Assembly (NCBI GenBank): GCA_024226555.1
Contig: JAAELO010000822.1
Span: 62,866 to 126,865, forward strand
Direction of reading: 5' to 3'
DNA length: 64,000 nucleotides
Origin: Desulfobacterales bacterium
GTDB lineage: Bacteria; Desulfobacterota; Desulfobacteria; Desulfobacterales; JAAELO01
Of the stretch, positions 1,101-63,373 are shown one piece after another. Position numbers and translations under genes: made by a program. The stretch's first letter is position 1. The number at the start of each line of letters is the position of its first letter. The notes beneath the pieces are model-generated. The model had not been told where the DNA came from. It did no database searches and worked only from the letters and a program-made list of their open reading frames with translations.

Positions 1101-1231
1101 GGGAATCTCTAATAATTAGAATTTTTTGATGAAAAACAAGGCATAACAAAAAAAACGGGTTATTAAAAGCTTTACTTTTATAAAGTTTACAGTTTTATTT
1201 TTGTTATATCTGTGTTTCGCAAAAAGATCAG
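1101..1231 (+). mobile_element. MITE copy (GGGAAYCTCTAATAA-TIR family), right end degenerate
   Basis: Left TIR GGGAATCTCTAATAATTAG. The interior aligns with the 30766 copy (gatgaaaaacaaggcataacaaaaaa...gtgtttcgcaaaaagatcag) plus an extra TTATAAA module. The right TIR is lost after gatcag. Confidence 0.6.
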
Positions 1232-1280
1232 GATTAACCTGCTTAAAATCAATTTTATCAATTAACTACAGGATTTCAAT

Positions 1281-3632
1281 ATGTCAGAAAAACCCACATA
1301 TGAAGAATTAGAGCTACGGATTCGTGAGTTGGAAAATGATAAATTAGAGATTAAACGTTCAAAAGATGAAATCATGAAGTTCCGTACTATTGCAGACAAA
1401 GCAGCACATGGGTACACCATTGTAGAGTTGGATGGAACCATTGTATATCTGAACGATTTTTTTGCTAAACTACATGGTTATTCTGCCAACGAGTTGATCG
1501 GAAAAAATCTGTCAGTCTTTCATAATGAAAAACAACTTGAAAACGTTCAATGTATCAATAAAAACCTTATAAATAGCAGAAATTACAGTGCATTGGAAGT
1601 CTGGCATACTCATAAGGACGGCACTGAGTTTCTAATGCTTATGAACGCGGTAGTTATCAATGATGATAATGGTGCGCCTGAATACCTGGGGGCAACAGGT
1701 ATAGATATCACAAATCGCAAGATGTCAGAGACAGCACTCTATGAAAGTCAAGCCAAACTAGTACGGTCTCAATATCTCTCCAAAATGGGCGACTTTACAT
1801 GGGAGATATCTACTGGTTTTGTTACATGGTCTGAAGGGATGCACAGGTTGTTGGGATATGATTTGAACGAAAAGATTAATTATGCGAAAGTCAATTTATC
1901 AATCCATCATCCTGACGATCTTAAAAGCGTTACTAAATGGTTAAATGACAGCATTGCTTCTGGCAATGAAGACCTTATCACAAATGAGTATCGTCTTGTT
2001 TGCAAGAATGGTGAGGTTATTGAAGTTCGTACTGTCGGACAAATTGAGTACTGTGATGGAGTTGCCGTAAAGTTGTTTGGGACATGTCAGGATATCACTG
2101 AACTTAAACAGACCGAACAGGCACTTCGCTATGAAAAAAAATTTATAAACATGGCCATTGATAGTTTGCCTGGAATCTTTTACCTCTTCACAAAAGAGGG
2201 AAAGTTTTTGAGATGGAATGATAATTTCGAAAAAGTTTCAGGATATTCTGCGTTAGAAATTAGCACAATGAAGCCACGAGATTTCTTTCCAGTTGAAGAA
2301 CATGCTATCGTTGAGGAGCGAATAAGTGAAGTATTTAAAAAGGGAAGTTCTTTTGTTGAAGCAAACTGGCTTTCTAAAAATGGAACAAAAAAACTTTATT
2401 ATTTAACAGGTGTCTGTGTGGACATTGGAAGTGCTTTATGTCAGGTTGGGATGGGTATTGATATTAGTGACCGCAAATTAGCTGAGCAAGAACGTAAAAA
2501 GTTCCAGGACCAACTTCAGCATTCACAAAAAATGGAAGCTATAGCCACATTAGCAGGTGGTATCGCACATGATTTTAACAATATGTTGGGTGTTATAACT
2601 GGAAATACCTCATTTGCACTAAGCATTCTGAGTAAAAAAGATGAACTGTTCGAGGTTCTCTCCGATATCAAAGCTTCATCAAAACAAGCGCAAACCCTTA
2701 CACATCAGCTACTTATCTTTTCTAAAGGTGGTGCACCCATAAAAAAAACAGTTGATATAAATAAATTAATAAATGAAGCATCTGTCTTTTCAATAAGAGG
2801 ATCTAAATCAAAATGTAATTTTGAATTGTCAGATGATTTATGGAGATCGGAAGTTGATGAGGGACAAATCAATCAGGTTATCGGAAATCTGATTATTAAT
2901 GCCAATCAGGCTATGCCAAATGGTGGAATTATTACCATAAAAACAGATAATATAGAGGTTTATATTGAAAGTGTACTTCCATTGTCATCTGGAAGTTTCA
3001 TCAGAATTGTAGTTGAAGACCAGGGAATTGGTATCCACAAAAAACACCTTTCAAAAATATTTGAACCATATTTTTCTACTAAACAAAAAGGAAGTGGCCT
3101 TGGACTAGCTACAACATATTCGATAATTAAGAGACATGGCGGACATATTAACGTACATTCAGAAATTGAAAAAGGGACTTATTTTAGTGTTTATCTACCG
3201 GCTTCATCAAAATGTACCAAGCCAGTTGAGGATAAAGGGGACCCTATACATGCAGGTAACGGTAAGATTCTGATAATGGACGATCAGGAATCCATTTTAA
3301 AAATGGTTGGAAGGATGTTAAATCATATGGGATATGAGACTATATTTGCTACGGACGGCACACAGGCAGTTGAACTTTTTCGTGATCATTATAAAACGAA
3401 AAACCATTTGGAACTGGTGATTCTCGATCTAACAATTCCCGGGGGTATGGGAGGATTAAAAACAATTATTGAATTATTAAAAATTGATCCCAATGTTAAA
3501 GCTGTGGTCTCAAGTGGATATTCGAATGATCAAATTATGGCAAATTATGAGGATTATGGTTTTTGCGGAATAGTTCCAAAACCTTATACTAAAGGTCAAT
3601 TAGCCGAAGTTTTAAATAGAATTCTTGCATAA
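1281..3632 (+). CDS. PAS-domain hybrid sensor histidine kinase with C-terminal receiver
   Basis: Several PAS-like blocks; H-box IAHDFNNMLGVITG; ATPase motifs NLIINANQAMP and GSGLGLATTYSIIKRHGG; receiver ILIMDDQESIL...VILDLTIPGGMGG. Confidence 0.9.
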   Translation: MSEKPTYEELELRIRELENDKLEIKRSKDEIMKFRTIADKAAHGYTIVELDGTIVYLNDFFAKLHGYSANELIGKNLSVFHNEKQLENVQCINKNLINSRNYSALEVWHTHKDGTEFLMLMNAVVINDDNGAPEYLGATGIDITNRKMSETALYESQAKLVRSQYLSKMGDFTWEISTGFVTWSEGMHRLLGYDLNEKINYAKVNLSIHHPDDLKSVTKWLNDSIASGNEDLITNEYRLVCKNGEVIEVRTVGQIEYCDGVAVKLFGTCQDITELKQTEQALRYEKKFINMAIDSLPGIFYLFTKEGKFLRWNDNFEKVSGYSALEISTMKPRDFFPVEEHAIVEERISEVFKKGSSFVEANWLSKNGTKKLYYLTGVCVDIGSALCQVGMGIDISDRKLAEQERKKFQDQLQHSQKMEAIATLAGGIAHDFNNMLGVITGNTSFALSILSKKDELFEVLSDIKASSKQAQTLTHQLLIFSKGGAPIKKTVDINKLINEASVFSIRGSKSKCNFELSDDLWRSEVDEGQINQVIGNLIINANQAMPNGGIITIKTDNIEVYIESVLPLSSGSFIRIVVEDQGIGIHKKHLSKIFEPYFSTKQKGSGLGLATTYSIIKRHGGHINVHSEIEKGTYFSVYLPASSKCTKPVEDKGDPIHAGNGKILIMDDQESILKMVGRMLNHMGYETIFATDGTQAVELFRDHYKTKNHLELVILDLTIPGGMGGLKTIIELLKIDPNVKAVVSSGYSNDQIMANYEDYGFCGIVPKPYTKGQLAEVLNRILA

Positions 3633-3699
3633 ATTGCTATTTTCAATTCAGTGTTACCTTTAACTCAAATCTACCTAAACTATAATAAAGTATACTAAA

Positions 3700-3851
3700 G
3701 GGAACCTCTGATAATTAGGTTTAAATTTAATACAGCAAATGAGCAAAGGTTACCTCAATTTTTGTCATTTTTTGCACTACTTATGTCATTGTAGCATTTT
3801 TCATTTTTAACTATCTTAAGGGAAGCTTAAGCAAAATTATTAGAGATTCCC
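3700..3851. mobile_element. MITE-family element, divergent/composite interior
   Basis: Left TIR GGGAACCTCTGATAATTAGG and right TIR AAAATTATTAGAGATTCCC. The interior contains extra TIR-like fragments (aaaggttacctc, gggaagct). Flanks are TAAA/TTTA, which is not a clean direct duplication. Confidence 0.55.
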
Positions 3852-3882
3852 TTTAACAACTTAAAAAATGGAGAAAAATTAA

Positions 3883-4614: not shown

Positions 4615-4637
4615 AGGAAATTTATTAGAAATTTCCT
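4615..4637. repeat. TIR-like mini-palindrome (collapsed MITE ends)
   Basis: AGGAAATTT-attag-AAATTTCCT; resembles the family TIR (ttattagaaatttcc) and directly abuts the next MITE. Confidence 0.35.
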
Positions 4638-4640: not shown

Positions 4641-4801
4641 GGGAAACTCTAATAGTTAGTTTTTTGGTTGAATTACAAATTTTATAAAAGCTTCCGGTTT
4701 TATAAAACCCTCTGCTTGAGAAGTAAAGATAAGATTTTGCAACAGTTATTTTTTTCCTGTAACGCAGTAATTCTGACAAAAAGCATTTATTAGAGATTCC
4801 C
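4641..4801 (+). mobile_element. MITE copy, long variant
   Basis: TIRs GGGAAACTCTAATAGTTAG / CATTTATTAGAGATTCCC. The interior aligns to the reverse complement of the 56807 long copy, including the ttttataaaagcttccggttttataaaacc module. Confidence 0.75.
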
Positions 4802-4843
4802 TGTATTCTTATAAAATTAATAGTCCCTTAAGGACTGGTTTCT

Positions 4844-5562
4844 TTGAGGTACTGTTCGGGTTTTCAGCTTTTACGGAAACGCTTTAAACCCTTATTAAAC
4901 AATTTTGAATTTGGTAAATGCAAAGAACCAATCCGTTTGACCATTGGAGAATGGCCTCCTTATTTTTCAAAAGATTTGAAGCATAACGGAGTTGTTTCAC
5001 ATGTTGTTCAACGAGTATTTAAATTTGCTGACGTTAACGTTCAATATGGATATTCCCATGGAGAAGATCATTAATGTTAGCAAAGAAAGGAGAATGGGAT
5101 GGAACTGTGGGATGGCACAAAAACGCAAAACGAGAAAAAATATTTTATATAAGTAATCCATTATTTTACGATATCAGTGCTGTATTTCATCTAAAGAGAA
5201 AACCAATCAAATTCAAAAAACTTAAAGATTTAAAAGGACTTCGTGCTGGTCTTATTATGGGTTATGAATATAAAGTCATTGATCCTTTAGTTAAAAAAGG
5301 GATTGTTAAAGCGAGTTATGTACCAAGAGAAGAACTTGCTTTTAAGATGTTGTTAAATGAGCGATTTGATTTTTTCCCGTTAAGCCTGGATGTTGGTAAT
5401 GCAATTTTACAAAGTAAATTTACTAAAAAAGAAAGAGATCTGATTGAGCACCTGGTTGTTCCAAACAAGGCTCCTTTCACCTTATATATGCTTTATAAGA
5501 ATGAAAGAAGTAAAGTTCTTATCAAGGGATTTAATAAAGGTTTAAAAAAGTGGCGAATATGA
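4844..5562 (+). pseudogene. Family-3 periplasmic solute-binding protein, 5'-truncated and frameshifted
   Basis: ORFs 4844-5074 and 5074-5562 are one gene. Frame 1 ends ...VQYGYSHGEDH*, while the next frame reads FPWRRSLMLAKKGEWDGTVGW. One extra T in the TT at 5053-5054 would restore ...YGYFPWRRSL.... There is no signal peptide before ...KEPIRLTIGEWPPY. Confidence 0.75.
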
Positions 5563-5615
5563 CAAACTCTGGAAAAATTCCCGTAAAGGAAAATATCTTA
5601 TGGGAACCTTACTTG

Positions 5616-6911
5616 TTATTTGAAATACAATTCGTGGAACTCTTTTTCCAGATTTTCTCTGTATTCTGGTGCTGCAATATTAATAAGTTGCCTTGCGCGT
5701 TCTTTTATTGTTTTTCCATGCAGGGATGCAACTCCATATTCAGTAACAATATAATCAACATCATTTCTTGATGTGGTAACAGATTGACCTCTGTCCAGTG
5801 CTGCAACTATTCTGGAACAAGTTCCTTTTGCAGCTGTTGCCGGAAGTGCGATAATACTCCTTCCACCTTTGGAACGCTTTGCACCTCTTACAAAATCCAC
5901 CTGACCTCCTACGCCTGAATACTGGTATGGTCCAATTGAATCTGCTGAAACCTGCCCAAGCAAATCTACAGAAATAGCGGAATTGATTGAAACCAGATTA
6001 TCATTTTGTGCAATAATAAAAGGATCATTTATATAATCTACCGGGTACATCTCAATCATTGGGTTATTGTCCATCCATTGATAAAATTTTTCTGTTCCCA
6101 TGGCGAAAGTTAAAACAATTTTTGAAGGGTGAAGAGTCTTTTTCGAACTATTTATCACTCCTTTTTCCACAAGATCCATAACACCATCAGAAATCATTTC
6201 TGAGTGGATAGAAAGATCCTTTTTATCATCAAGGAATGATAAAACGGCTTCAGGAATTGCACCTATACCAATTTGAAGGCAATCTTCATCTTTAATTAGT
6301 CCGGCTGCATTATACCCTATTTTTTTCTCAACATCTCCTATAACAGGTCTTGAAACCTCTATCATTTTTCTGTTTGATGGAATTAAATGATCTATTTTAT
6401 CTATATTAATAGAATATGAACCCATTGTTCTTGGCATGTGAGGAGAAACTTCAGCTATAACCACTTTCGCAGACATAGCTGCTTCATAAGTATAGTCAAC
6501 GGATAATCCAAGACTGCAATTACCATCTTCATCAGGCAATGAAACCGATATAATAGCAACATCAACCGGAATTGATTTATCTCTGAATAGCTCAGGGACT
6601 TCGTTGAAAAAACAGCTTATAAAATCTGATCGCCCTTTGTTAATAGCATCTCTGCTGTTTTTTGTTCCAAAAAGTGAGATGTGGTGAAATGATTTTTCGA
6701 GCTCTGGTTTGCAGTATTCCAGTTTTCCAAAGGAAAGCACATGTACAATTTTAACATTTGAAAGTTCGTCAGCTCTTTTAGCAATTTCATCAAGTACAGG
6801 TTCAGGTGATGCGCAAGCATGTCCCGAAACTATTGTGTCACCGGATTTTATTAGTTTTGCTGCTTCTTCAATGTTTATACATTTTTCTTTAAATTTTTTA
6901 TCAATATTCAT
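5616..6911 (-). CDS. Acetyl-CoA hydrolase/transferase family protein (4-hydroxybutyrate / butyryl-CoA:acetate CoA-transferase-like)
   Basis: 431 aa. N-terminal ...IEEAAKLIKSGDTIVSGHACASPEPVLDEI... and C-terminal ...GQVSADSIGPYQYSGVGGQVDFVRGA...VDYIVTEYG, typical of the family. AGGAAG RBS. Confidence 0.85.
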   Translation of the reverse strand: MNIDKKFKEKCINIEEAAKLIKSGDTIVSGHACASPEPVLDEIAKRADELSNVKIVHVLSFGKLEYCKPELEKSFHHISLFGTKNSRDAINKGRSDFISCFFNEVPELFRDKSIPVDVAIISVSLPDEDGNCSLGLSVDYTYEAAMSAKVVIAEVSPHMPRTMGSYSINIDKIDHLIPSNRKMIEVSRPVIGDVEKKIGYNAAGLIKDEDCLQIGIGAIPEAVLSFLDDKKDLSIHSEMISDGVMDLVEKGVINSSKKTLHPSKIVLTFAMGTEKFYQWMDNNPMIEMYPVDYINDPFIIAQNDNLVSINSAISVDLLGQVSADSIGPYQYSGVGGQVDFVRGAKRSKGGRSIIALPATAAKGTCSRIVAALDRGQSVTTSRNDVDYIVTEYGVASLHGKTIKERARQLINIAAPEYRENLEKEFHELYFK

Positions 6912-7139
6912 TATATCTTCCTGCTTTTTAATACTTTTATAGAACCAGATCTTTAATTTTTAGAGAATATAAACAAAGTTCAGTTTTAACGTAAATACTT
7001 TAATATGTTTCCTTCTTAAAAAGATTTATCAATCGTTCCTTAAGCCCTGATAGAGCTGAAATATGATATATTTTGTTTTTTGCAGAATGTCCCCAATACA
7101 AGGAAATCAGATTCTAAATATGTTCATTTTATTTTTCAA

Positions 7140-7257
7140 AGGAAATCTCTGAAATACTTCTGGAATGGAGTTTTTTTTATAAAAAAGAGGGTCATGCCAA
7201 ACGTTGTACCATAGCATGGAATGAGTGATTACCATAAAGACAAATTTATTAGAGACT
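7140..7257. repeat. Degenerate MITE remnant
   Basis: Left end AGGAAATCTCTGAAATA and right end AATTTATTAGAGAC with decayed interior. It overlaps the spurious ORFs 7107-7295 and 7221-7424. Confidence 0.35.
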
Positions 7258-15640: not shown

Positions 15641-15767
15641 GGGAACCTCTAACAATTAATATTTTGATAAAATACAAGGCATTTCTGAAAATAACGAGCC
15701 GATTTTATTACAGTTTTTTTTAGAAATAACACAATATTTTTCAAAAGAGGAGTTATTAGAGATTCCC
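15641..15767 (+). mobile_element. MITE copy, intact short type (127 bp)
   Basis: TIRs GGGAACCTCTAACAATTA / GAGTTATTAGAGATTCCC. Flanked by TTAA at 15637-15640 and 15768-15771. Starts 15 nt after the sdaA stop. Confidence 0.85.
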
Positions 15768-15922: not shown

Positions 15923-15940
15923 AGGAAACCTCTAATAACT
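15923..15940 (+). repeat. Solo MITE left-TIR fragment
   Basis: AGGAAACCTCTAATAACT with no partner end. Confidence 0.4.
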
Positions 15941-16001: not shown

Positions 16002-16018
16002 AGAGAACCTCTAAGATA
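16002..16018 (+). repeat. Solo TIR-like fragment
   Basis: AGAGAACCTCTAAGATA, 19 nt upstream of the 16037 start codon. Confidence 0.3.
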
Positions 16019-20016: not shown

Positions 20017-20856
20017 TTAATATTCTTTTGGTGTTATGTTCACTTCATCAAGTGTAAAAACCGGACCATCCTTACAAACTAATTCTTTCCCTATATTACA
20101 CCTTCCACACAAACCGATGCCACATTTCATTCTGTTTTCAAGAGATAAAATAATTTGGTCATTTTTGTATCCCAGTTTTTCAAGAACAGGCAGTGTAAAA
20201 CGGATCATAACAGGAGGGCCGCAAACAATTGCATAGGTATCACTATCGGCATTTGGGGCTTTCTGCTCGGTTATTGCAGGAGTAAATCCTACATTATATT
20301 CCCAGCCAGGAGCTTCAGTATCTATAGTAAGGATATTAATGTCATCACGTTTTTCCCACTCAATCAATTCTTCTTTATAAAGAAGCATACCAGGAGTTCT
20401 GGCTCCGTAGACCACATCAATATTTCCATAGTTCCCACGGTTTTTTGGATCAAGCATATATACAATTGATGACCTTAGAGTTGTAAAAGCAAAACCTCCT
20501 CCAACAATCAGGATATTTTTTCCTTTCAGGGTTTCCCAGGGATACCAGTTACCTAAAGGTCCCCTAATACCCATAACATCACCAATATTCGTGTTGTGTA
20601 GGTGTGATGTTACAACACCAGCCTTAAAAACTGTAAACATTACAAAACCTTTTTCAACTGGAGATGATGCTATCCCTATTGGAATTTCTCCTTTTCCGGG
20701 TATTGACAGTTCAGCAAACTGACCAGCTTTATATTTAAACTTTTCTTCATCCTCTTCATTTAAAAAAACAAATTTAAATGTTTTAAGACTCTTATCCTCG
20801 GTAGCAACCTGAATATCATCGATACGCACGGGATATGGCAGATATGGATTTTCCAT
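20017..20856 (-). CDS. FAD/NAD(P)-binding oxidoreductase with C-terminal [2Fe-2S] (FlxA / AsrB / sulfide-dehydrogenase-type)
   Basis: RPxS-like FAD motif context, NAD fold ILIVGGGFAFTTL, and C-terminal CGIGLCGRCNIG...CKDGPVF. Confidence 0.8.
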   Translation of the reverse strand: MENPYLPYPVRIDDIQVATEDKSLKTFKFVFLNEEDEEKFKYKAGQFAELSIPGKGEIPIGIASSPVEKGFVMFTVFKAGVVTSHLHNTNIGDVMGIRGPLGNWYPWETLKGKNILIVGGGFAFTTLRSSIVYMLDPKNRGNYGNIDVVYGARTPGMLLYKEELIEWEKRDDINILTIDTEAPGWEYNVGFTPAITEQKAPNADSDTYAIVCGPPVMIRFTLPVLEKLGYKNDQIILSLENRMKCGIGLCGRCNIGKELVCKDGPVFTLDEVNITPKEY

Positions 20857-20868
20857 TTTTTTTCTCTC

Positions 20869-21892
20869 CTATTCTACAGGCATATAACTATTCATTTTGT
20901 CACAAACCTTGCGTATATCAATATTTACCGGGCACTGGCGAACACATCGCCCGCATCCTACACACATAGTTCCTTTTTCATATTTATCTACAAAATACTT
21001 TAGTTTATGCATAAAACGTTGTCTGACCCTGTGTGTTTTTGTTCCTCTTGGATTATGACCAGTAGTGTGCATTGTAAAAAGTGGGAACATACAGCTATCC
21101 CAGTTTTTCATACGAACCTTTACCATCTTTAATTTCATCTGAAATGTCGAAGCACCAGCATGTTGGACAGGCAAAAGTGCAGGTTCCACAGTTCAGGCAC
21201 GCAAATGAAACATCTTCCCAAAAGGGAGCATTATATAAATCCAGAGTATCAAATTGAGAAAGTTGATCAGTTTGAAGTTTTGATATGATTTTTGCCTCTG
21301 CAGTTTTTTTAAATGAATTAAATATTTCAATGTCACCTTTTTTATTCCAACCTGCTGATTCAAAGAGTTTTTCACCCTTTTCTGTTACTAATTTTGCAGT
21401 AAAACCCTCTTCTGTCTCAACAAGCAAGGCATCAAGCCCTTCTTCATTATAAGGCCCAGATCCGGTTGAAAGACAAAAACATTTATCATCCGGTTTATCA
21501 CAGGCAAAGCCTATAAAAGTTGTAGCATTATATGAATTTAACCAGTAAGGATCTTTGTACAGCTCTGTGTCAAAGTTCATTTTTACGAGTTCAAGAGATT
21601 TTGCATCACAGGGTCTGATCCCGAATATTACCCGGGGAGAGTAGTCCTTTTCAACCTCTTTCATGATATTGTCGTTAGTAGAATATGACATCATGACTTC
21701 AGACTGGGGAAAAGCTATTGATTTAGGCGATAGTTTTGTGTTTAAAAAACTAAAATCCGGAAGCGTACCTTTTTCAAGCTCCTCGAAATTGTATGAATCA
21801 TCTCTTTTTACCGGCCCCGATACTTTATATAAGCTCTTCAGATCTTCTACCCCGGAGGCCCATTTATCTTTATCTATTTTTATTATTTCCAT
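20869..21892 (-). pseudogene. FlxB/AsrA-like 4Fe-4S protein, interrupted by a frameshift
   Basis: ORFs 21095-21892 (...CLNCGTCTFACPTCWCFDISDEIKDGKG...) and 20869-21189 (...VRMKNWDSCMFP...CVGCGRCVRQCP) overlap in different frames. Together they give one about 345-aa protein. The shift is near 21110-21125 (aaaGGttcgt). Confidence 0.7.
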
Positions 21893-21906
21893 GGTAAATC
21901 CTTTGT

Positions 21907-22760
21907 CTATTTAATAAAATCTTCCGGGTCGTTCAATTTAAATGAATCAAGAGGAGGACGCTGTTCAAGAGAAAGTCCCGTTTCCCATCCAAACTGTTCA
22001 AAACACTCTTTATCCAGCTTTTTGGTAAAATATCTGACCCTGATATTCTGTGGGCAGGCTGCTTCACAAGCGCCACAGTCAGTACATCTTCCTGCACAGT
22101 GATATGATCTTAAGATATGATAGGTTCGAATATCAACCGAACCATTACTTTTCCCACCCACTGAGGTTTTGATTCATCCACAAAACATGTTGGACAGTAA
22201 CACAGAGGGCATGCATTTCTACAGGCATAACATCTTGTACAGGGTTTGAGTAGTTTCTCAAAAAACTCCCATTTATCCTGGGGTTCCATAGCTTCAATTT
22301 CACGAATATCTTCATAACGATCCACATCCTTGTCCTCTTCAACAAGGTCTGCGCAAAGTTCATCATAAATCACAGGATTTTTGTATTTACAGGTTTTACA
22401 ATTATTTGCCAGTTCGTTTGTACTATTCTGAGAATGCATCCCTTTGCATGGAACACCTATAATGTATAACTGCTCCCTTTTAATTTTATTCTCAATTATA
22501 AGGTTATTAATGTTTCTTGAATCACAACCTTTTGCAATGATACCAATTTTTTCCTCTTTACGGTTAACAAGATATGTCGCAAGGTTTATCCTGCAATTAT
22601 TATCCCAAACAAGATCATCAACTTCATAATTGTTTCTGATCATGCAGGGTTCATTTTTACCGTCCACACTTCCAGACCTGTAACCTATTAAAATTTCTAC
22701 AGTACCATCATTTGTTAGCCTTTTAGATATTTCCTTAATCTTCTCTATATATAAATCCAT
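21907..22760 (-). pseudogene. FlxC-like 4Fe-4S protein, interrupted by a frameshift
   Basis: ORFs 22110-22760 (...CTRCYACRNACPLCYCPTCFVDESKPQWVGK) and 21907-22161 (SNGSVDIRTYHILRSYHCAGRCTDCGACEAACPQN) overlap in different frames. A fifth A in the A4 run at 22149-22152 would restore ...WVGKSNGS.... Confidence 0.65.
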
Positions 22761-22763
22761 ATT

Positions 22764-23192
22764 TTAAACCTCAGCACAGCTTTTGATCAGATACTTTGCA
22801 GGACCTAATTTTGTTACTTCTTCAATTACTTCCTTAGCAACATCTGCAAACTTTACTCCTTCAGCAGAAGATATCCATGAAAAATTTAGCCTTCCAGGCT
22901 CGATTCCATTAAATTCCAACAATTGCTTTATTAAAGTAAATTTTCTTCTGGCATAATAGTTACCTTCAATATAGTGGCAGTCACCAGGATGACATCCTGA
23001 TATCCATACCCCATCAGCTCCTTTTCTCAATGAAGCAAGTATCATTTTGGGAGATATTCTACCTGAACATGGAACTCTTATAACCCGCATATTTGGGGGA
23101 TATTGAAACCTGCTTACACCAGCAAGATCCGCTGCACCGTAGCTACACCAATTACATAAAAAGGTGATAATTTTTGGTTCAAAACTACTCAT
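22764..23192 (-). CDS. mvhD: MvhD-type (methyl-viologen-reducing hydrogenase delta / FlxD-like) subunit
   Basis: FLCNWCSYGAADLAG, RVPCSGR and GCHPGDCHY, the classic MvhD cysteine pattern. Confidence 0.9.
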   Translation of the reverse strand: MSSFEPKIITFLCNWCSYGAADLAGVSRFQYPPNMRVIRVPCSGRISPKMILASLRKGADGVWISGCHPGDCHYIEGNYYARRKFTLIKQLLEFNGIEPGRLNFSWISSAEGVKFADVAKEVIEEVTKLGPAKYLIKSCAEV

Positions 23193-23263
23193 AATCTTCT
23201 ATTTCTCCTATATAAAATATACCCGGACTGTATCCCGGTTTATATTTCTTAATTTGTGATTTT

Positions 23264-23281
23264 TAGTTATTAGAGGGTTCC
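23264..23281. repeat. Solo MITE right-TIR fragment
   Basis: AGTTATTAGAGGGTTCC, immediately next to the intact copy at 23286. Confidence 0.5.
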
Positions 23282-23285
23282 TTTA

Positions 23286-23415
23286 GGGAGTCTCTAATAA
23301 CTGTTCTTTTGGCGAAATACGGCTTTATTTCCAAAAAATAACTGTAATAAAATCGGCTCGTTATTTTTTGTCAAACCTTGTATTTCATCCAAAATTCTAA
23401 TTATTAGAGGTTCCT
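23286..23415 (-). mobile_element. MITE copy, intact short type, inside the hdrA-mvhD spacer
   Basis: The reverse complement aligns end-to-end with the 41456 copy. Flanked by TTTA at 23282-23285 and 23416-23419; the right-hand duplication contains the hdrA stop codon (TAA on the minus strand, 23419-23417). Confidence 0.85.
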
Positions 23416-23416
23416 T

Positions 23417-26400
23417 TTATACATTTTCAATCATCTCCATAATTTGAAATTCCTCAAATCCTCTTAAATATATTGCTCCTGATCTACAGGAAGCAGCACA
23501 AGCACCGCACCCCTTACATAACAATGGATTTATCTCTGATAATCCTTCAAAGTTCCCCTCTGTTATAAAATCGGGAGCATTGTAAGGACAGATTTCAATA
23601 CAACTTCCGCATGAAGAGCAATATGATGAATTAACCTTAGCTGTTGTTCCAATAGTATTAATTGTTTTCCTTGATAATAACCTGGTTGCACTCGATGCTG
23701 CAGCCTGAGCCTGTGCAATAGATTCATCAATAGGTTTCGGGTAATGTGCTAATCCACACAGAAATACGCCATCTGTTGCAAAATCTGAAGGGGCCAATTT
23801 TACATGGGCTTCAGCAAAAAATCCCTCATCATTAACAGGTATCTTGAAAAACTTTCCAAGCTTGTCATTATTATTTGGAGCTATGGCTGATGCCAAAGTA
23901 ATAAGATCGGTTTGAATATTTAACTTTCTTTGAAGAACATGATCTGTGACGACTACTGATAAAATATCCTTTTCTTTTTTCACAACAGGTTTATCATTAA
24001 TGCCGTACCTGATAAATACTATGCCTTTTTCCCTGGCCTCTTTATATAGATTCTCTTTCTCTCCATATGTTCTGATATCCCTGTAAAGTACAAAAATCTT
24101 CATCCCTGGATTTTTTTCTTTTAAAGAAAGAGCAGATAGTACCGAATGGGAACAACATATTCTTGAGCAGAATGGCCTTTCATTGTTCCTTGATCCAACA
24201 CACTGTATAAATACAGCTACTTTAGATTCAGCAAGAAAAGGGGCATTCTCTTTAAATTTCTGATCAAGTTCCAGACCTGTTAGAATTCTGTCATCTTCAC
24301 CATACAAATATTCATTGGGTTTATATTCTAAAGCCCCTGTTGCTATAATTGTCACGCCATGTTGAATAGATTTTTTGTTTCCATTAGTATCGATTGTTGA
24401 AGTAAAATTACCAACAAAACCATCAACATTTTTAAGTTCAGCTCCTGTAAGAATCTCAATATTATTATCTTCATATACTGAATCTTTCATTTGATCCAAA
24501 TGTAACGCCACATCCTGACCATTTGCTGTTTTGTGAATCAAATTTGCATTTCCACCAAGGTTTTCTGATTTTTCAAGAAGAGTTACTTTGTATCCCTGTT
24601 CTGAAAGTGCTTTTGCAGATGTTATTCCGGAGATACCACCTCCAATAACAAGAGCATCCTGATGGATCTCAAGAACTTCCTCCTTAAGAGGTTCAAGCTG
24701 GGCCACCTTTGCAACTGCCATTCTGACAAGATCTTTCGATTTTTGAGTAGCTTCTGCAGGAAAATCTTTATGAACCCAGGAACCATGGTTTCTTATATTA
24801 ACCATTTCAAAAAGATACTTATTCAAACTGGCTTCTACCAAAGTTTCCTGAAAAAGAGGGTCGTGGGTTCTTGGTGTACAGGCTGCAACAACTATACGAT
24901 TAAGACCTTTTTCCCTGATCTGAGTGGATATTAATTCCTGAGTATCCTGTGAGCAGGAGTAAAGATTATCTTCAACATATTCAACAAAAGGAAGATCTTT
25001 TGCGAAATCTCTAACTGCTGCAACATCAATAACACTGCTTATATTAATACCACAATGACAAACAAAAACACCTATTCGTGGTCTATCACCTCTTATATCT
25101 ATCTCTTCAGGGATTAACATTTTTTTTGTTAATGTATTACGTGTAGATGAAAGGGCTGAACCGGATACAAGAGCTGCTGCACCTGCTTCAATTACAGTTT
25201 GTGGAATATCTTTAGGCCCCTGTAAAGCCCCGCAAACATATATACCCTTGCGTGATGTTGAAACAGGATTAAAAGTATCTGTTTTAACAAAATTCCCATC
25301 TGTAAGTTCAATTTCCAGTTTTTTAGTCAAATCTCTGGTTTCAGCATCAATCTCGATTCCCACAGAAAGAACAATTATATCGTAATTGTCACGGACAACC
25401 ACACCTTTTGCTTCATCAAAATAGTCTATGACCGTTCCTTTTTCACCTTCAGAAAAAACTGAGTGAACACGGCATCTGACAAATTTTATCCCATATTTAT
25501 CTTTTGCTTCATTATAACAATTTTCAAAGCCTTTTCCATGGGTTCTCATATCCATATAGAAAATTGTACATTCAAGGGATGGGTCGTGTTCTTTTGCTAT
25601 GATCGCCTGTTTAATAGCGTACATGCAACAAACAGCAGAGCAGTGTGAGTTATTGCAATTATTGATATCTCTTGATCCCACACACTGAAACCATGCTACT
25701 TTATCAGGTTCTTTATGATCTGATGGTCTTATTAAATGCCCCTGATTAGGACCTGATGCTGATAACAATCTCTCAAACTCAAGTGATGTTACAACATCCG
25801 GATTATTGTCATAAGCATAATATGGATTTCCTGAAGGGTCATGAGCCTTGAATCCTGGGGCTAATATTATAGATCCCACATTCAGATCATGGGTTTTATC
25901 AGTATCATCGAACAAAATAGCATCAGCAGGACATTCTTTTTCACAATTCCCGCACTTATCTTTTGTTAACTTTATGCAATTAGCCGGGTCAATGCTGTAT
26001 TTAAGAGGCACAGCCTGTGGATATAAAGCATAAATAGCTTTTCGTTTTACCAGTTTTTCGTTATAAACATCTTCTACTTTTTTGGGACATTTCTCGGTAC
26101 AGGCACCGCATGCAATACATTTTTCCATATCAACATATCTGGCTTTTTCAAAAACTGTGACCTCAAAGTTACCAGGTTCCCCATTAACTTCTGTTATTTC
26201 TGAAAGGGTCAGTAACTCAATGTTTATATGCCTTCCAAGTTCAACAAGCTTAGGAGACATTATACACATTGAGCAATCATTTGTTGGGAAAGTTTTATCG
26301 AGTTGAGCCATTTTTCCCCCAATTGAAGGGGATTTTTCTACCATGTATACATAATAACCGGAATTAGCAAGATCAAGAGCGGACTGGATGCCTCCAATTC

Positions 26401-27802: not shown

Positions 27803-27827
27803 GGGTATCTCTAATAATCAGAGGTCC
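27803..27827. repeat. TIR-like mini-palindrome
   Basis: GGGTATCTCTAATAATCAGAGGTCC, 29 nt upstream of the hdrD-like start codon. Confidence 0.35.
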
Positions 27828-28865: not shown

Positions 28866-28995
28866 TTCTGATTCGTTTATAAAACGCTTAATTTATAAAC
28901 ATTTACAACAGTTCTTTTTTTTGAATAAATCTGTTTTTCTGTCTTTTCGAACAACTTAAGTAGTCCCGGTCAAAAAGCAATTATTAGAAATTTCC
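28866..28995 (+). mobile_element. MITE copy, long type, 5'-truncated
   Basis: Aligns to the reverse complement of the 56807 copy from ...ctgattcgtttataaaa... to the right TIR CAATTATTAGAAATTTCC. The left TIR is absent. Confidence 0.6.
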
Positions 28996-36520: not shown

Positions 36521-36732
36521 ATTCCCTATCCTCTATTTAAAATTTGAAATGCATTTAGAAATTTTGAATTATTATAGATTAATTAAATATCATTTTCAAG
36601 ATATTCAATCGTCGTTAGAGGTTTTGGATTGAAATAATATAAAAAATTAAATAGATGAGCTACTTAAATAGACACTTTTTGTAGAAAAACAATTGACTAA
36701 TTAGGATGCATTAAAAAATTGTATTAAAAAAC

Positions 36733-41455: not shown

Positions 41456-41584
41456 GGGAACCTCTAATAATTAAAATTTTGGATGAAATACAAGGTATTT
41501 CTAAAAATAATGAGCCGACTTTATTACAGTTTTTTTTAGAAATAACAAAGTATTTCGGCAAAAGAGGAGTTATTAGAGGTTCCC
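41456..41584 (+). mobile_element. MITE copy, intact short type (129 bp)
   Basis: TIRs GGGAACCTCTAATAATTA / GAGTTATTAGAGGTTCCC. TATA direct repeats at 41452-41455 and 41585-41588. Confidence 0.9.
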
Positions 41585-45556: not shown

Positions 45557-46141
45557 ATGAATAAAACCTTCAAACAGAAATCAAAAACATTTGTTTTAAG
45601 ATGTTACTGGGATCTCTGGAATAGTGAAAAATCAGCAAATGCATACAAATCATTGTTTGAAATGGGTTTTACAGATCAAACAATGCAGGATTTTGCAATC
45701 GGATGGAATTCAAAAAATGTTCGTAAACCCTATAGTTCTTTTGGGCTATCAGGTGGAAAATTTGAAATTCCAAAGGGTATAGTTTTTCCCTATTTAATTG
45801 ATAAAGAAGTGCATGGTTTCAAAATATTCTCATTGTCTTTTGATGAAATCTTTAAAATGCTCCATGGTTCATACCTTCCTATTATTTTTGATACAGGGAA
45901 AAGCATTACTGTTATTGTACAAAATGAGATAACAGGTATTTTAATATCCCAGGTATTCAAAAACAAAGTTAATGTTATTATTACAGGTCTTGAGATAAAT
46001 GATAAAATTGAAGGTCTGATTAAAAGATCTGATTCAATAATAGTAGAGAATATTCATACAGACCTGATTCCACGGGATAAAACGAATTTTTATATATATA
46101 ATAGTTTTGAAAGTCTGGTAGAATTGCTGAAATCTTTTTAA
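45557..46141 (+). CDS. Hypothetical protein (weak DnaG-linker/Toprim-like resemblance)
   Basis: Starts 5 nt after the kinase stop. ...AYKSLFEMGFTDQTMQDFAIGWN...PKGIVFPYLIDKEVHGFKIF... then ...ITVIVQNEITGILISQ...VNVIITG. The resemblance is weak and unverified. Confidence 0.4.
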   Translation: MNKTFKQKSKTFVLRCYWDLWNSEKSANAYKSLFEMGFTDQTMQDFAIGWNSKNVRKPYSSFGLSGGKFEIPKGIVFPYLIDKEVHGFKIFSLSFDEIFKMLHGSYLPIIFDTGKSITVIVQNEITGILISQVFKNKVNVIITGLEINDKIEGLIKRSDSIIVENIHTDLIPRDKTNFYIYNSFESLVELLKSF

Positions 46142-46283
46142 ATCAAATGTTTTGCTGAAAAAAAAGGATTAAAAGTTATCACAGTTACCATCGTTTACAA
46201 CATTGCAATTATTTTAAATATTAATCATTATTGTTTTTAGATGAAATAACTCAAATTCAATTTTCTATTCTCTTAAAAACGGT

Positions 46284-46298
46284 TTATTTAAGGTTCCC
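46284..46298. repeat. Possible solo right-TIR fragment
   Basis: TTATTTAAGGTTCCC. Confidence 0.25.
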
Positions 46299-48484: not shown

Positions 48485-48643
48485 GGGGTAACTCTAATTA
48501 TTAGAATTTTGGATGAAAATACAAGGCTTGACCAAAAATAACGAACCGATTCGGTTATAAAACGTTTTTCTTTATAGCCATTACAGCAGTTTTTTTGGTA
48601 ATAAAGAAGTATTTAGCCAAAAGACAAGTTATTAGAGATTCAC
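48485..48643 (+). mobile_element. MITE copy with internal module insertion (159 bp)
   Basis: TIRs GGGGTAACTCTAATTATTAG / AAGTTATTAGAGATTCAC. TTAA direct repeats at 48481-48484 and 48644-48647. Extra ggttataaaacgtttttctttatagcc module. Confidence 0.8.
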
Positions 48644-49887: not shown

Positions 49888-50736
49888 ATGGATATTAAAA
49901 CGTTTGGTGTTATTGGATCAGGTCAGATGGGAAATGGAATAGCACAAGTTGCTGCAATGAGTGGGCTTGATGTTATTATGAGTGATATAAGTCTGGACTT
50001 TGCTGAAAAAGGTCTTGCAACAATATCTAAAAATCTTGATAGAAATGTTTCTAAAGGTAAGATGACGGAGGATGAAAAAAACACTATTTTAACCAGAGTT
50101 TCAGTAACATCTGATCTTAATGATATGTCAGGAGTAGATTTTCTGGTTGAAGCTGCAGTTGAAAGAGAGGATCTTAAGTTCCAGATATTCAGAGATCTTG
50201 ATGAAATATGCCCTGATCATGTTATTCTTTCAACAAATACATCTTCTATTCCTATTGGAAGGATAGGTGCACAAACAAAAAGGCCTGGGAAGGTAATTGG
50301 TATGCACTTTATGAATCCTGTTCCAGTGATGAAACTTTGTGAAGTTATTAGAGGTCTTGCAACATCTGACGAAACTTTTAAAGTTACTATGGATCTTTGC
50401 GAAAAATTCAATAAAACTTCAGCGGTATCAAACGATTACCCTGGTTTTATTGCGAACAGAATATTGATGCCAATGATTAATGAAGCTATATTCTGTGTTT
50501 TCCAGAACGTAGGATCACCCGAAGATATAGATACAGTAATGAAACTTGGTATGAATCATCCAATGGGCCCTCTTGCTCTTGCGGATTTAATAGGATTAGA
50601 TACATGCCTTGCTATTATGGAAACACTTCATGATGGTTTTAAAGACTCAAAATACAGAGCATGTCCACTTTTAAGGCAATATGTTGAAGCTGGCTGGTTA
50701 GGAAGAAAGTCGGGCAGAGGTTTCTACAAATATTAG
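49888..50736 (+). CDS. hbd: 3-hydroxybutyryl-CoA dehydrogenase
   Basis: GVIGSGQMGNGIAQV NAD fold, SNTSS, HFMNPVPVMKL, and GFIANRIL. Confidence 0.95.
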   Translation: MDIKTFGVIGSGQMGNGIAQVAAMSGLDVIMSDISLDFAEKGLATISKNLDRNVSKGKMTEDEKNTILTRVSVTSDLNDMSGVDFLVEAAVEREDLKFQIFRDLDEICPDHVILSTNTSSIPIGRIGAQTKRPGKVIGMHFMNPVPVMKLCEVIRGLATSDETFKVTMDLCEKFNKTSAVSNDYPGFIANRILMPMINEAIFCVFQNVGSPEDIDTVMKLGMNHPMGPLALADLIGLDTCLAIMETLHDGFKDSKYRACPLLRQYVEAGWLGRKSGRGFYKY

Positions 50737-50752
50737 AGAGTCTCTGATAATC
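50731..50752. repeat. TIR-like mini-palindrome overlapping the hbd stop
   Basis: TATTAGAGAGTCTCTGATAATC; could be a collapsed element or chance. Confidence 0.25.
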
Positions 50753-50821
50753 TCTTTTTGGAGAAATTTCTGTGTTATCTCAAACAATTACTATTTGTAA
50801 TATATTAAGAGGAATTTAAAA

Positions 50822-52662: not shown

Positions 52663-52677
52663 TTTTTAGAGATTCCC
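52663..52677. repeat. Solo MITE right-TIR fragment
   Basis: TTTTTAGAGATTCCC followed by TAAA. Confidence 0.4.
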
Positions 52678-54857: not shown

Positions 54858-54940
54858 GGGAACCTCTATTAACATTTTTTTATAAAACTTTGAGATTTTT
54901 AATCTGTATATTAAGCAGGTTTCAATCGATTAGAGGTTTA
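54858..54940 (-). mobile_element. MITE copy, short deletion variant with eroded right end
   Basis: Left TIR GGGAACCTCTATTAAC; interior as in the 35419 variant; right end ...CAATCGATTAGAGGTTT. Starts 6 nt after the stop at 54852. Confidence 0.55.
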
Positions 54941-54958
54941 TATTACAAAATCTTATAT

Positions 54959-55317
54959 GGGAATCCTTAATAATTGCCTTTTGATAGAACGACTTAAGTT
55001 GTTTTAAAAGAAATAAAAACAAAACAACGGAGTATATTTCAAAAATAAAACTGTAAACTTTATAGAGGGAAACTCTAATAATTGGAGTTTTGTCTCAAAT
55101 ACAAGGCATGATAAAAAAATTGCCTACGCTTTAAAGGTGATTCCTTTTTCGAAAAACGCAGTATTTGATCAAAAGAGCAGTTATTTAGAGATTCCCTAGA
55201 ATAAAAACTTTTTATAAACGAAACGGCTCATTATTTTTCTTATGAAGAGATTTTATAAATCAAAAGGCTTTTATAAACGTTGTATTTAAATCATAATTCT
55301 AATTATTAGAGGTTTCC
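54959..55317 (-). mobile_element. MITE copy, long type, carrying a nested short-type insertion
   Basis: TIRs GGGAATCCTTAATAATT / CTAATTATTAGAGGTTTCC. It aligns with the 56807 copy on both sides of the 55067-55196 insert. Confidence 0.75.
55067..55196 (+). mobile_element. MITE copy, intact short type, nested inside the 54959-55317 element
   Basis: TIRs GGGAAACTCTAATAATTGG / CAGTTATTTAGAGATTCCC. TAGA direct repeats at 55063-55066 and 55197-55200. Confidence 0.9.
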
Positions 55318-55491
55318 AATCTAAAAAGTTGATAAAATCTTTAATTCATATTACTTTATTGTAATTATTCATGAATGCTTTGCCCTGATTTTTTAACGGT
55401 AGGTAAGATTCATAAAATTATTAATTGCCTAAAATTTAAAAATGTGGTTTTTATGGTCACTCTATAGAAAACTTTAAATAAAGAGGTTCAA

Positions 55492-56806: not shown

Positions 56807-56997
56807 GGGAATCTCTAATAACTGTCCTTTGACCGAACTACTGGCTTTCTTCGAAATAAAAAACTGTAAACTTTATAAAATAAACCTTTTTATAAACGAA
56901 TCAGCTCGTTATTTATTTCTCAAACAGAGGTTTTATAAAACTGAAAGCTTTTATAAACGCTGTATTTCAATCAAAATCCTAATTATTAGAGTTCCCC
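56807..56997 (-). mobile_element. MITE copy, intact long type (191 bp, two TTTTATAAA modules)
   Basis: TIRs GGGAATCTCTAATAACT / CTAATTATTAGAGTTCCCC. TTAT at 56803-56806 and 56998-57001. Ends 4 nt from the stop codon of 57002-58357. Confidence 0.85.
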
Positions 56998-61499: not shown

Positions 61500-62162
61500 A
61501 TGTGTGGAAGGTTTGCTTTTTACAGTACTATTGCTGCAATAAATAAAAGTATCAATATAAAAGTTATCACCTGCTCAGTTGAATCTTCATATAATATAGC
61601 ACCACTTAGTGAAGTTTTAACTGTGATCAGAGATGGTGATCTGAAACTCGGAAAACTGAAATGGGGTTTTGTTCCATCATTTGCAAAAGATACTAAATTA
61701 GCATCAAAAATGATCAATGCCAGATTTGAAACCATATCTGAAAAACCGAGCTTTAAAAGATCATACAGTAAAAAAAGATGCATTATTCTGGCAAATGGTT
61801 TTTATGAATGGCGCAAGGAGAAAGATGGAAAACAACCATACTACATCTATATCCCAACAAGAGAAATTTTAACATTTGCAGGAATATTTGAGATCTGGAA
61901 TAAAAAATACAAATCCTGTGCAATTATCACCAAAGATTCATCATCAGATATATCTAAAATACACCCGCGAATGCCAGTTGTTTTAAAAGAGAATGCTTTT
62001 ATGGACTGGCTTGATAAAGATATTACTGATAAAGATGCTTTAAATGAAATTATTCAGGAAAACTGTGAGGATAGTTTCAGCTTCCACAAGGTTTCAAAAG
62101 ATGTAAACTATACTCAGAAAAATTCAAAAAAATGTATATCTGTTTTAACCGAATCTCTCTGA
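61500..62162 (+). CDS. SOS-response-associated peptidase (SRAP; YedK/HMCES family)
   Basis: Starts MCGRF (catalytic Cys2), with YNIAP, MINARFET and FYEW motifs. Begins 12 nt after the helicase stop. Confidence 0.9.
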   Translation: MCGRFAFYSTIAAINKSINIKVITCSVESSYNIAPLSEVLTVIRDGDLKLGKLKWGFVPSFAKDTKLASKMINARFETISEKPSFKRSYSKKRCIILANGFYEWRKEKDGKQPYYIYIPTREILTFAGIFEIWNKKYKSCAIITKDSSSDISKIHPRMPVVLKENAFMDWLDKDITDKDALNEIIQENCEDSFSFHKVSKDVNYTQKNSKKCISVLTESL

Positions 62163-62282
62163 AAAAATGTAATAGGAGAATGTAATTTATCAGGTTGTCC
62201 CCCCTGAAAAATTGTTACTTTGGAGAGTTCATGGGTATAAAAAGATAGAGAAAGACTTTTCCTCTTCAATGTCCCGATTTTT

Positions 62283-62333
62283 TTATTGTGAAGCTTGCGT
62301 TTAATACCCGCTTGCGGCGGGGTTTTTTATTTG
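62283..62333 (+). repeat. Repeat A: about 50-bp element ending in a GC-rich hairpin plus T-tract
   Basis: TTATTgtgAAGCTTGcgtttaataCCCgCTTGCGGCGgggTTTTTTATTTg; an inverted partner lies at 63652-63702. Confidence 0.5.
62307..62329 (+). terminator. Rho-independent terminator of the helicase-SRAP unit
   Basis: CCCGC-ttgcg-GCGGG followed by GTTTTTTAT. It is a GC-rich island in AT-rich DNA, 145 nt after the SRAP stop. Confidence 0.6.
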
Positions 62334-62359
62334 AAGACGCTTGATACAGTTACTTTTCC

Positions 62360-63212
62360 CTATTTTTTTATCAATTTATCAGGTAGAGCGTAATATTTAT
62401 CATGAATTTTCTGCATTATCTTTGATTCTCGGATTTTAGCCATCTTATCCCAGATTTTATTTGCAAGATCAGGATGTTTCTTTATAAATTGATGTGAAAA
62501 CATTAAATAGTAGGGTTTCATAACAAATGGTGGTTCTAATTTTACTATGTTTTTATATTTATGGTTATTTTTAATAGTAAAATCAATTTTTTTAGGATGA
62601 TCTGTAATAACGTAAAATCGTCTTGCCAATAGTTTATTCAAATTATTAATTGAGGTTGTCGCACCATCATCAACAAGAAATCCACGTTTTTTGAGTTCAC
62701 CTACTGACGAATACCCTAAAATAGCGCCAATACGTCCTTTTAGGTTTGTGAATTTTTTACCATCCCATTGAACTGAAGAACCTAACATTTTGTAAAAGGC
62801 ATAGGAGTTAATTGTAATTCTTCGCTTTGGATCTGCCTTTCCGTTTTTCATAGGATAAACGCCATATTTCAATCGTCCTTTTTTGAAACTGGAGGTAAAA
62901 GCTCCTTGTCTTTCATTTTTTAAGTTGGTCAAGACACCTTCTCCAGTTAGTTCGATAATAATTTAATTTAATTTGTGGTATTTCTTCGTCGACTAATTGC
63001 AGTAACTCTATAGTAACTCCGGGCTTTTCCCAGTTAAATTTAGTTCCATTCCCAATTAATAAAGGGAAATTGTGAGAATTTCCAGTAGTCAATTTTAAAA
63101 CAATAGGGCTTTCAGCTAGAAGTTGATTTTTATTTCCTAATAAAAAAATCATTATAATGATAAATAAATGAAATAAATTTTGTCTTACCGCATTTTTAAA
63201 AAATATTTTCAT
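62360..63212 (-). pseudogene. Family-3 periplasmic solute-binding protein, frameshifted
   Basis: ORFs 62913-63212 (signal peptide ...RTNWRRCLDQLKK*) and 62360-62932 (...NLKNERQGAFTSSFKKGR...) are one gene. The minus-strand A6 run (plus-strand T-run 62916-62921) has one base too many; A5 would give ...CLDQLKNERQGAF.... Confidence 0.75.
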
Positions 63213-63245
63213 GTTTTCTATCCTTTAATTGTTTTTATACTATAG

Positions 63246-63373
63246 GGGAATCTCTAATAACTGATCTTTTGGCGAAATACTTTGTTATTTCCAAAAATAA
63301 CTGTAATAAAATCGGTCGTTAATTTTTGAAAAACCTTGTATTTCATTCAAAATTCTAATTATTAGAGGTTCCC
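63246..63373 (-). mobile_element. MITE copy, intact short type (128 bp), in the 5' leader of the broken SBP gene
   Basis: TIRs GGGAATCTCTAATAACTG / CTAATTATTAGAGGTTCCC. ATAG direct repeats at 63242-63245 and 63374-63377. Confidence 0.9.

Follow-up and report, generated by a model that had tools for sequence, protein, structure and literature searches.

The intergenic DNA of the uncultured Desulfobacterales bacterium represented by assembly GCA_024226555.1 raises the question of what kind of repeat is dispersed between its genes and how it came to be there. In a 64,000-nucleotide stretch of contig JAAELO010000822.1 (positions 62,866 to 126,865 of the forward strand; this whole stretch is called the window, and coordinates given without a locus name refer to it), a short palindromic sequence with conserved ends recurs at many sites. 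[quoted passage not shown] The analysis presented here makes it very probable that the elements constitute an IS5-derived family of non-autonomous hairpin MITEs, that is, small relatives of a full-length insertion sequence (IS). This is a known and well-documented kind of element, and present ideas on how MITEs work are unchanged by it.

The repeat is bounded by a 17-bp terminal inverted repeat (TIR), GGGAAYCTCTAATAAYT, which is found 29 times in the window at up to two mismatches, versus 0.12 matches expected from shuffled sequences, none of which (0 of 100) reached 29. Copies and fragments occupy about 24 sites, in line with the proposed density of one per 2.5–3 kb, and every copy is intergenic. 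However, the family covers 2.6 of the 10.8 kb of intergenic DNA, i.e. 24%, and the description that it fills this DNA was overstated. All six copies listed as intact were recovered with direct 4-bp repeats at their flanks. Four are on the plus strand: 15641–15767 (127 bp; TTAA; E 6e-32; fold z-score −6.8), located 14 bp past the stop codon of an L-serine ammonia-lyase gene, 30766–30895 (130 bp; TTAT; E 3e-34), 41456–41584 (129 bp; TATA), which has the best hairpin with −46.8 kcal/mol, and 55067–55196 (130 bp; TAGA), which is nested in another element. On the minus strand lie 23286–23415 (130 bp; TTTA; E 5e-37), whose flanking repeat overlaps the stop codon of an HdrA-like gene (1-bp gap), and 63246–63373 (128 bp; ATAG). 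With a profile built from these six copies, the E-values are 1e-30 to 1e-37 for the better-scoring strand of each copy, compared with 1e-6 to 1e-8 for the opposite strand, hence the element is near-palindromic yet directional. At least two size classes can be distinguished, the form of 127–130 bp and longer mosaics with extra TTTTATAAA palindromes, and the variants range from 81 to 359 bp. As stated previously, the element has no coding capacity, its longest stop-free stretch being 43 amino acids.

Folding of the intact copies yields in each case the single long hairpin that had been postulated, with energies of −32 to −47 kcal/mol and z-scores of −4.7 to −8.8 relative to dinucleotide shuffles. 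Over the aligned copies, pairing in the terminal helix amounts to 98%. In the two internal stems 90% of the cells are paired, versus 44–58% when the partner column is shifted by one to three positions, and eight double-change pairs keep pairing, versus 4.2 ± 1.3 after shuffling (1 of 500 shuffles), all of this in an alignment of only eight sequences. The hairpin shows modest compensatory change.

The 4-bp direct repeats were evaluated on TIR pairs 40–400 bp apart, pooled from the window and other genomes (n = 50). Thirty of these pairs, which stem from the window and at least six phyla, have the same 4-mer on either side. Considered position by position, the flanks agree in 39–42 of the 50 pairs in the 4-bp register, versus about 9–27 in registers of 2, 3, 5, 6 or 7 bp. 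The proposed target-site duplication (TSD) of 4 bp is borne out by these values, and it is seen in no other register. Its targets are AT-rich, with TTAA seven times, ATAA five times and TTAT four times among the 30 duplications. Being short, multi-copy, without a transposase gene and bounded by TIRs and a TSD of fixed length, the repeats show these defining features of MITEs.

Full-length elements with the same ends exist outside the sampled DNA of this organism. At locus L023 an element of 1279 bp (4831–6109), bounded by the family ends and a TTAA duplication, contains an open reading frame (ORF) for a 337-aa transposase. This protein reaches 291 bits with the NCBIfam IS5 family model NF033581 (cut-off 140) and comprises the Pfam domains DUF772 (PF05598) and DDE_Tnp_1 (PF01609). 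A metagenome scan with the L023 transposase returned 80 loci at 66–93% identity, about 64 of which have both ends 1274–1317 bp apart, and 4-bp TSDs are evident at many loci. Full-length copies with shared ends and 4-bp duplications are accordingly known from these roughly 64 metagenome loci, from one deltaproteobacterial metagenome-assembled genome (MAG) and from another Desulfobacterales MAG, where a copy of 1289 bp is flanked by TTAA (L176, 9896–11184). The duplications of full-length copies are TTAA, TTTA, TAAA, ATAA, TAGA, TTAT, ATAT and TTGA. Their left inverted repeat reads GGGTTCCTCTAAAAATT and their right inverted repeat GGG[A/C]ACCTCTAA[T/A]AATT. The 17-bp end of the MITE is identical to the right end, with no mismatch, in eight of the IS loci (L092, L095, L096, L102, L103, L108, L110 and L112). 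The MITE profile aligns to right ends over 20–53 nt, and the longest alignment, to MITE positions 1–53, is found in L159, where the right end ...TTTTGAATGAAAACCAAGGT faces ...TTTTGAATGAAATACAAGGT of the MITE. The transposase clade is large, with at least 7,914 clusters at 90% identity (E ≤ 1e-60), and every name given to its members is 'IS5 family transposase'. The tentative assignment to the IS5 group made in the initial annotation from the duplication length is supported by these elements.

We infer that a transposase of this clade moved the copies of the window, and that a partner element exists or existed in the host genome. The DDE transposase (DUF772 plus DDE_Tnp_1, NCBIfam transpos_IS5_4) would be supplied in trans from a full-length copy and would bind the 17-bp ends together with a predicted 10–35 bp or so of subterminal sequence. 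By the cut-and-paste chemistry general to IS5-family DDE enzymes, it would then excise the MITE and insert it at AT-rich 4-bp targets in the order of preference TTAA > ATAA > TTAT, and repair of the staggered cut would duplicate the 4 bp. Since each half of the MITE is similar to the IS right end, the element looks like two parental right ends joined head to head, an origin that would give rise to the single long hairpin.

The same end is not confined to the Desulfobacterales. An exact-match scan for a degenerate 17-mer, in one genome per species, gave at least 76 loci. About 280 chance occurrences of the 17-mer are estimated in the 596 Gb covered, and unpaired hits were not counted as evidence. 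Among the matches listed, a second, facing end lies at most 400 bp away in about 38 loci. In 23 of these the 4-bp flanks match, and the DNA between the ends is unrelated to the MITE of the window. According to the record titles, the paired loci belong to Syntrophaceae and other Deltaproteobacteria, Methylobacter/Crenothrix/Methyloglobulus, Planctomycetaceae, Ruminococcaceae/Clostridiales, Spirochaetota and Nitrospirae. In Thermodesulfobacteriota, Gammaproteobacteria, Planctomycetota, Bacillota, Spirochaetota and Nitrospirota, the 17-bp end delimits small elements that are flanked by TSDs and have interiors unrelated to one another. A search with the MITE profile gave no complete copy of the element in the 76 listed loci with an exact TIR, which indicates that the MITE interiors are lineage-specific. 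When the same loci were searched with the L023 transposase by tblastn, the only hits were in L023, in L039, where a partial gene of the IS5 type adjoins the motif, and in L053, where a weak and distant match is located about 3.8 kb from the motif. Reuse of one end around unrelated interiors across phyla makes this widespread IS5 subgroup appear as a recurrent source of MITEs, and a profile of the 17-bp end would let annotation pipelines detect such elements across phyla. A more far-reaching proposal has two parts that would both have to hold: that unrelated MITE families in six or more bacterial phyla arose independently from the IS5 subgroup, whose 17-bp end GGGNNCCTCTAAWAATT hardly varies and which comprises at least 7,900 transposase clusters, and that the Desulfobacterales hairpins are retained by selection just past stop codons as 3'-end RNA elements whose pairing is kept by compensatory change. 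We consider this combination improbable. Cross-phylum reuse of one IS end, placement at stop codons and hairpin covariation are the only points possibly worth more work.

Two observations outside the Desulfobacterales concern the same end. Ten viral contigs carry the 17-mer, none of them with a facing pair, and these occurrences are possibly due to chance. The Planctomycetaceae MAG Cd354_bin63 contains about eight units of 113 and 142 bp in tandem (L065, 3583–4480). Every unit starts with this TIR, always on one strand, so that the array constitutes a minisatellite made of a single MITE end; numerous contigs of the MAG are broken within the element of the array. Beside the full-length IS copy of L159 (1469–2608), a downstream ORF adjoins which resembles a tyrosine recombinase of the phage-integrase type, as read from its sequence only.

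The family appears to have moved since closely related strains diverged. Comparison was possible with a sister MAG (GCA_024224625.1; loci L077, L079 and L080), which is 99.8% identical over about 50 kb. Further copies lie outside the window in this MAG, in L080 at 1684–1813, 5960–6087, 6381–6509 and 7022–7183. One of them (6381–6509), flanked by TAAA, splits a DHCW-cupin gene, and the rejoined halves match NF038084 from end to end (1–106 of 106, 172 bits). Another (7022–7183) is present only in the sister, and its right end coincides with the exact end of synteny at window position 29984, which suggests a MITE-associated rearrangement or a repeat-induced misjoin. Within the window, the intact copy 55067–55196 is nested in a longer element, which in its paralogue at 56807–56997 (191 bp, minus strand; TSD TTAT; internal TTTTATAAA palindromes; 4 bp from a stop codon) is uninterrupted. 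If the nested-copy junction is aligned to this paralogue, the score is 84 with one TAGA retained, 73 with none and 75 with both, and the alignment is ungapped only with the single TAGA. The resulting composite of a long-variant outer MITE and the nested copy (54959–55317, minus strand) has flanks ATAT/AATC without a clean TSD, and as 54952–55318 it is absent from the sister MAG (L077). With respect to empty sites with a single 4-mer, the paralogous element supports one TAGA, but the only true strain-level empty site is not clean. Two further differences involve copies of the family. In L081, which is 97% identical, window positions 62149–63728 (1.58 kb, including the MITE at 63246) are replaced by 52 unrelated bp (894–946). 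In the sister copy orthologous to 56807–56997, the right TIR is interrupted by a 74-bp insert (L077, 19929–20002) that follows ...ATTATTAG and precedes AGTTCCCC. The insert is flanked by TTAG at either end, and no repeat of it occurs elsewhere in the DNA examined.

Two side observations relate to these strain comparisons. The 1.58-kb segment also holds a 190-aa ORF (62360–62932, minus strand) without an NCBIfam match. Moreover, the sister contig (L079, 15737) lacks 6 kb of the window (20186–26237), which hold the MITE at 23286 and the larger part of the gene for the 1009-aa HdrA-like protein. The junction lies at a 4-bp CAAG microhomology, and the difference stems either from a genuine deletion or from faulty assembly.

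Relatives at greater distance display older, shared insertions in addition to these presence/absence differences. A heavily decayed copy at 46124–46298 (plus strand) corresponds to the better-preserved, intact copy at 4016–4148 of L083, a relative that is 94.5% identical. The fragment at 50737–50793 corresponds to a 126-bp copy at the same site in a relative of about 80% identity (L082, 1738–1863), and the MITE at 56807–56997 is conserved at the orthologous site in L081 (97% identity). In L078, about 75% identical, the intergenic region of 48485–48643 holds a copy that is oriented the other way. The L078 counterpart of the 41456–41584 region yielded no MITE, but the intergenic DNA there is too diverged to align. 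Together with the divergence among copies described below, the insertions shared with relatives indicate that the family is old in this lineage. It is mostly decaying, with turnover at a low rate or until recently.

Several points weigh against the reading as an IS5-derived family with a resident partner. A partner IS in the host genome is putative: a tblastn search with the IS5-type transposase found none in the window, as had been noted from its ORFs, nor in about 50 kb of extra DNA from the sister MAG and relatives (about 100 kb in total). The closest full-length IS found, L159, has no more than about 53 nt at a single end in common with the MITE, and the direct parent was not found. Full-length copies of the family are mutually 69–92% identical (mean 81%), several insertions are shared with relatives at about 80–95% identity, and most or all copies may now be immobile. 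When the cupin-splitting copy is removed in silico together with 4 bp, the reading frame is off by 1 nt within a run of A. The strain-level empty site at 54952–55318 does not consist of a single 4-mer (ATAT/AATC versus ATAT.TATC), and about 20 nt next to this junction differ at several positions between the window and the sister MAG. In general, MAG assemblies can misjoin at repeats, and the strain-level differences may be affected. Much of this would also be expected of a fossil family, i.e. MITEs as described here whose cognate transposase has been lost and which are immobile relics changing by decay, deletion and recombination. The missing transposase, the lack of any pair of copies above 92% identity, the many solo ends and truncated copies, the decayed copies at orthologous sites and the sole strain-level empty site, which could be a deletion, all agree with such a history. 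However, two copies of the sister MAG suggest fairly recent events: one splits a cupin gene that is still recognisable, with both halves intact, and one lies exactly at a synteny break. In addition, IS copies are often missing from short-read MAGs, so that absence from 100 kb says little. A fossil family is a serious possibility, to which we assign somewhat less than an even chance.

The position of the copies relative to genes bears on a different proposal, namely that on top of their MITE origin the hairpins have been exapted and are kept as stabilisers of mRNA 3' ends, processing sites or attenuators/terminators, a proposal with parallels in Correia, ERIC and RUP-type elements. Of 15 independent elements, seven end at most 15 bp past the stop codon of the upstream gene, versus 2.0 expected from random placement within each element's own intergenic region (P ~0.0008), and there is no start-codon bias among the 15. 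This bias is equally explained by a preference for TAA-containing targets or by purifying selection against other positions; a preference for TTAA, TAAA and ATAA could yield it because stop codons supply TAA. All ten orientable copies of the window are co-directional with their flanking genes (seven plus copies among plus genes, three minus copies among minus genes), but four of six extra copies from relatives break this rule. About 12 of 16 follow it overall, and the orientation bias is only suggestive. The strong fold z-scores and the double-change pairs would also fit retained hairpins, yet template switching in palindromes can produce such covariation, which moreover derives from the eight aligned sequences, and many copies are visibly decaying. 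The region rich in copies is enriched neither in terminator-like sites (10 versus 6.3 ± 2.5) nor in promoter-like sites (95 versus 84 ± 11), and a U-tract after the hairpin is absent. Exaptation is therefore regarded as improbable. With respect to the enzyme, a different TTAA-targeting transposase, for example IS1380/piggyBac-like or of another IS5-related subgroup, would imply that the resemblance to L023- and L159-type ends is convergent. A 4-bp TTAA duplication is a hallmark of piggyBac-type elements as well, and no partner was found in the host. Yet the 17-bp end is identical to the right end of eight L023-type copies, the similarity extends to 53 nt in L159, these IS copies share the 4-bp TSDs, and no transposase of another type was found beside the motif in the 76 listed genome loci. 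Convergence is, in consequence, very unlikely. Still less credible is an origin outside transposition, as palindromes of the type of repetitive extragenic palindromes (REP), bacterial interspersed mosaic elements (BIME) or integron attC sites spread by recombination, an integrase or a REP-associated tyrosine transposase (RAYT), or as chance in AT-rich DNA. Like attC sites and REPs, the elements are palindromic, intergenic and often just past stop codons. REP/BIME were rejected, however, as RAYT-associated, GC-rich palindromes of 20–40 nt without TSD, whereas the repeats of the window are AT-rich elements of about 128 bp with TSDs. Sites of the attC type were likewise rejected: the ends GGGAAC...GTTCCC do not fit the core RYYYAAC/GTTRRRY, and the copies occur in both orientations among syntenic housekeeping genes with TSDs present. 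The exact 4-bp direct repeats of variable sequence, the nested and gene-splitting insertions and the same ends on full-length IS copies add to this, chance is excluded by the TIR count, and the TSD statistics effectively refute the non-transposon explanation.

The IS5-derived MITE family can be placed among known systems as follows. Bacterial MITEs are described as high-copy, AT-rich, intergenic elements of 50–400 bp with TIRs, TSDs, stable hairpins, size variants and truncated copies (PMC10969869, PMC3184786). Nezha of cyanobacteria, Chunjie of Geobacter, MITEAba12 and the MITEs of P. gingivalis are alike in these general features and differ in TIR and in the IS from which they derive. Chunjie is the other MITE described from Deltaproteobacteria; it was rejected as the same family, as it has 21-bp TIRs and 9-bp direct repeats (PMC3184786). 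A large MITE survey contains nothing specific on IS5 or this TIR motif (PMC11602168), and in the searchable literature the TIR has no genuine occurrence, only chance matches in unrelated papers. Compared to E. coli IS5, the partner IS is similar in length (about 1.3 kb versus 1195 bp), in the combination of DUF772 and DDE_Tnp_1 and in its T/A-rich 4-bp duplications, and a loose GGAA...T.C..AATAA pattern is common to the family ends and the IS5 end GGAAGGTGCGAAYAAG. However, its transposase is only 26.6% identical to InsH and thus a distant relative, the end sequence is distinct, the family targets TTAA/ATAA/TTAT, and the window has non-autonomous derivatives only. Plasmid-borne IS5-family genes are all less than 60% identical to the partner transposase. 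The Correia elements of Neisseria (Correia repeat enclosed elements, CREE) duplicate TA, have 26-bp TIRs and carry promoter, integration host factor (IHF) and RNase III features. The comparison made in the initial annotation holds for shape, since both are small, near-palindromic, abundant and intergenic and possess TIRs and a long hairpin. It does not extend to sequence: the TIR is unrelated to the Correia consensus, the duplication is 4 bp and not TA, and there is no promoter or terminator enrichment in a region rich in copies. For annotation, the family represents about a quarter of the intergenic DNA in this uncultured Desulfobacterales lineage. It accounts for strain-level differences, namely the nested insertion, the split cupin gene and the copy at the synteny break, and such repeats can interrupt or mis-join MAG assemblies.

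All nine variants listed besides the intact copies (beginning at 1101, 3700, 4641, 28866, 35419, 48485, 54858, 54959 and 56807) were recovered by the profile or the TIR search. On the plus strand, the copy at 48485–48643 (TSD TTAA; E 3e-23) carries an internal insertion of about 30 bp and is located between co-directional genes for an acyl-CoA synthetase and a thiolase. The long variant at 4641–4801 (161 bp, plus strand; E 7e-14) has 4-bp flanks that do not match. At 1101–1231 (plus strand; E 9e-15), a copy with an internal insertion has a missing or degenerate right end, and at 3700–3851 (plus strand) a TIR pair 152 bp apart encloses a largely unrelated interior, with flanks TAAA/TTTA that are not a direct repeat. 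The 5'-truncated long-variant copy at 28866–28995 (plus strand) retains the right TIR only. Two short forms are without assigned strand: 35419–35499, an internally deleted copy of 81 bp with both TIRs, 14 bp past a stop codon, and 54858–54940, an 83-bp variant 5 bp past a stop codon, whose right end is better kept in the sister MAG.

The proposed solo ends fared less uniformly. Six were found at up to three mismatches: 4615–4637 (a solo end or collapsed mini-palindrome, no strand assigned), 15923–15940 (plus strand, one mismatch), 23264–23281 (minus strand, two mismatches, separated by 4 bp from the intact copy 23286–23415), 27803–27827 (plus strand, two mismatches, a solo end or mini-palindrome in a divergent promoter region), 52663–52677 (minus strand, one mismatch) and 50731–50752, which is part of a fragment consisting of one end and about 40 bp (50731–50793, minus strand) that overlaps a stop codon. 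The end at 46284–46298 is real but not solo, as it forms the right end of the decayed copy at about 46124–46298. A weak match at 16002–16018 (plus strand, five mismatches to the TIR) is a probable end remnant. Two claimed sites are unconfirmed, both without assigned strand. At 7140–7257, listed as a degenerate copy, there are short resemblances to the ends only, which both the profile and the TIR search missed, and 36604–36625 (TTAGAGGTTTT), which likewise resembles the ends over short stretches only, has no TIR match at up to four mismatches and was missed by the profile search.

The remaining observations concern the long variants and the surroundings of the copies. Paired palindromes of the form G-N-TTTTATAAA-M in the long variants (4680–4709, 55267–55278, 56929–56958 and similar) occur seven times versus 0.48 expected, and may represent a second, tinier inserted module. 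With Rfam at the gathering threshold, no family matches any MITE copy, and the sole match in the window is a full-length cobalamin riboswitch (RF00174; 540–731, minus strand; 103.6 bits), located just upstream of the MITE at 1101 and on the opposite strand. The window is AT-rich (28–37% G+C), and its genes encode hybrid histidine kinases, an HdrA-like protein and beta-oxidation enzymes. A 314-aa ORF at 29023–29967 matches a radical-SAM family over residues 26–204 and a GNAT acetyltransferase over residues 212–313; its exact sequence has no counterpart in the protein collection, and either a fusion or a frameshift between two genes may account for it. At about 27.8–28.2 kb, around a divergent intergenic region of 397 bp, the GC skew changes from negative to positive and the gene orientation from minus to plus, which could reflect a replication-related strand switch or mere operon layout.

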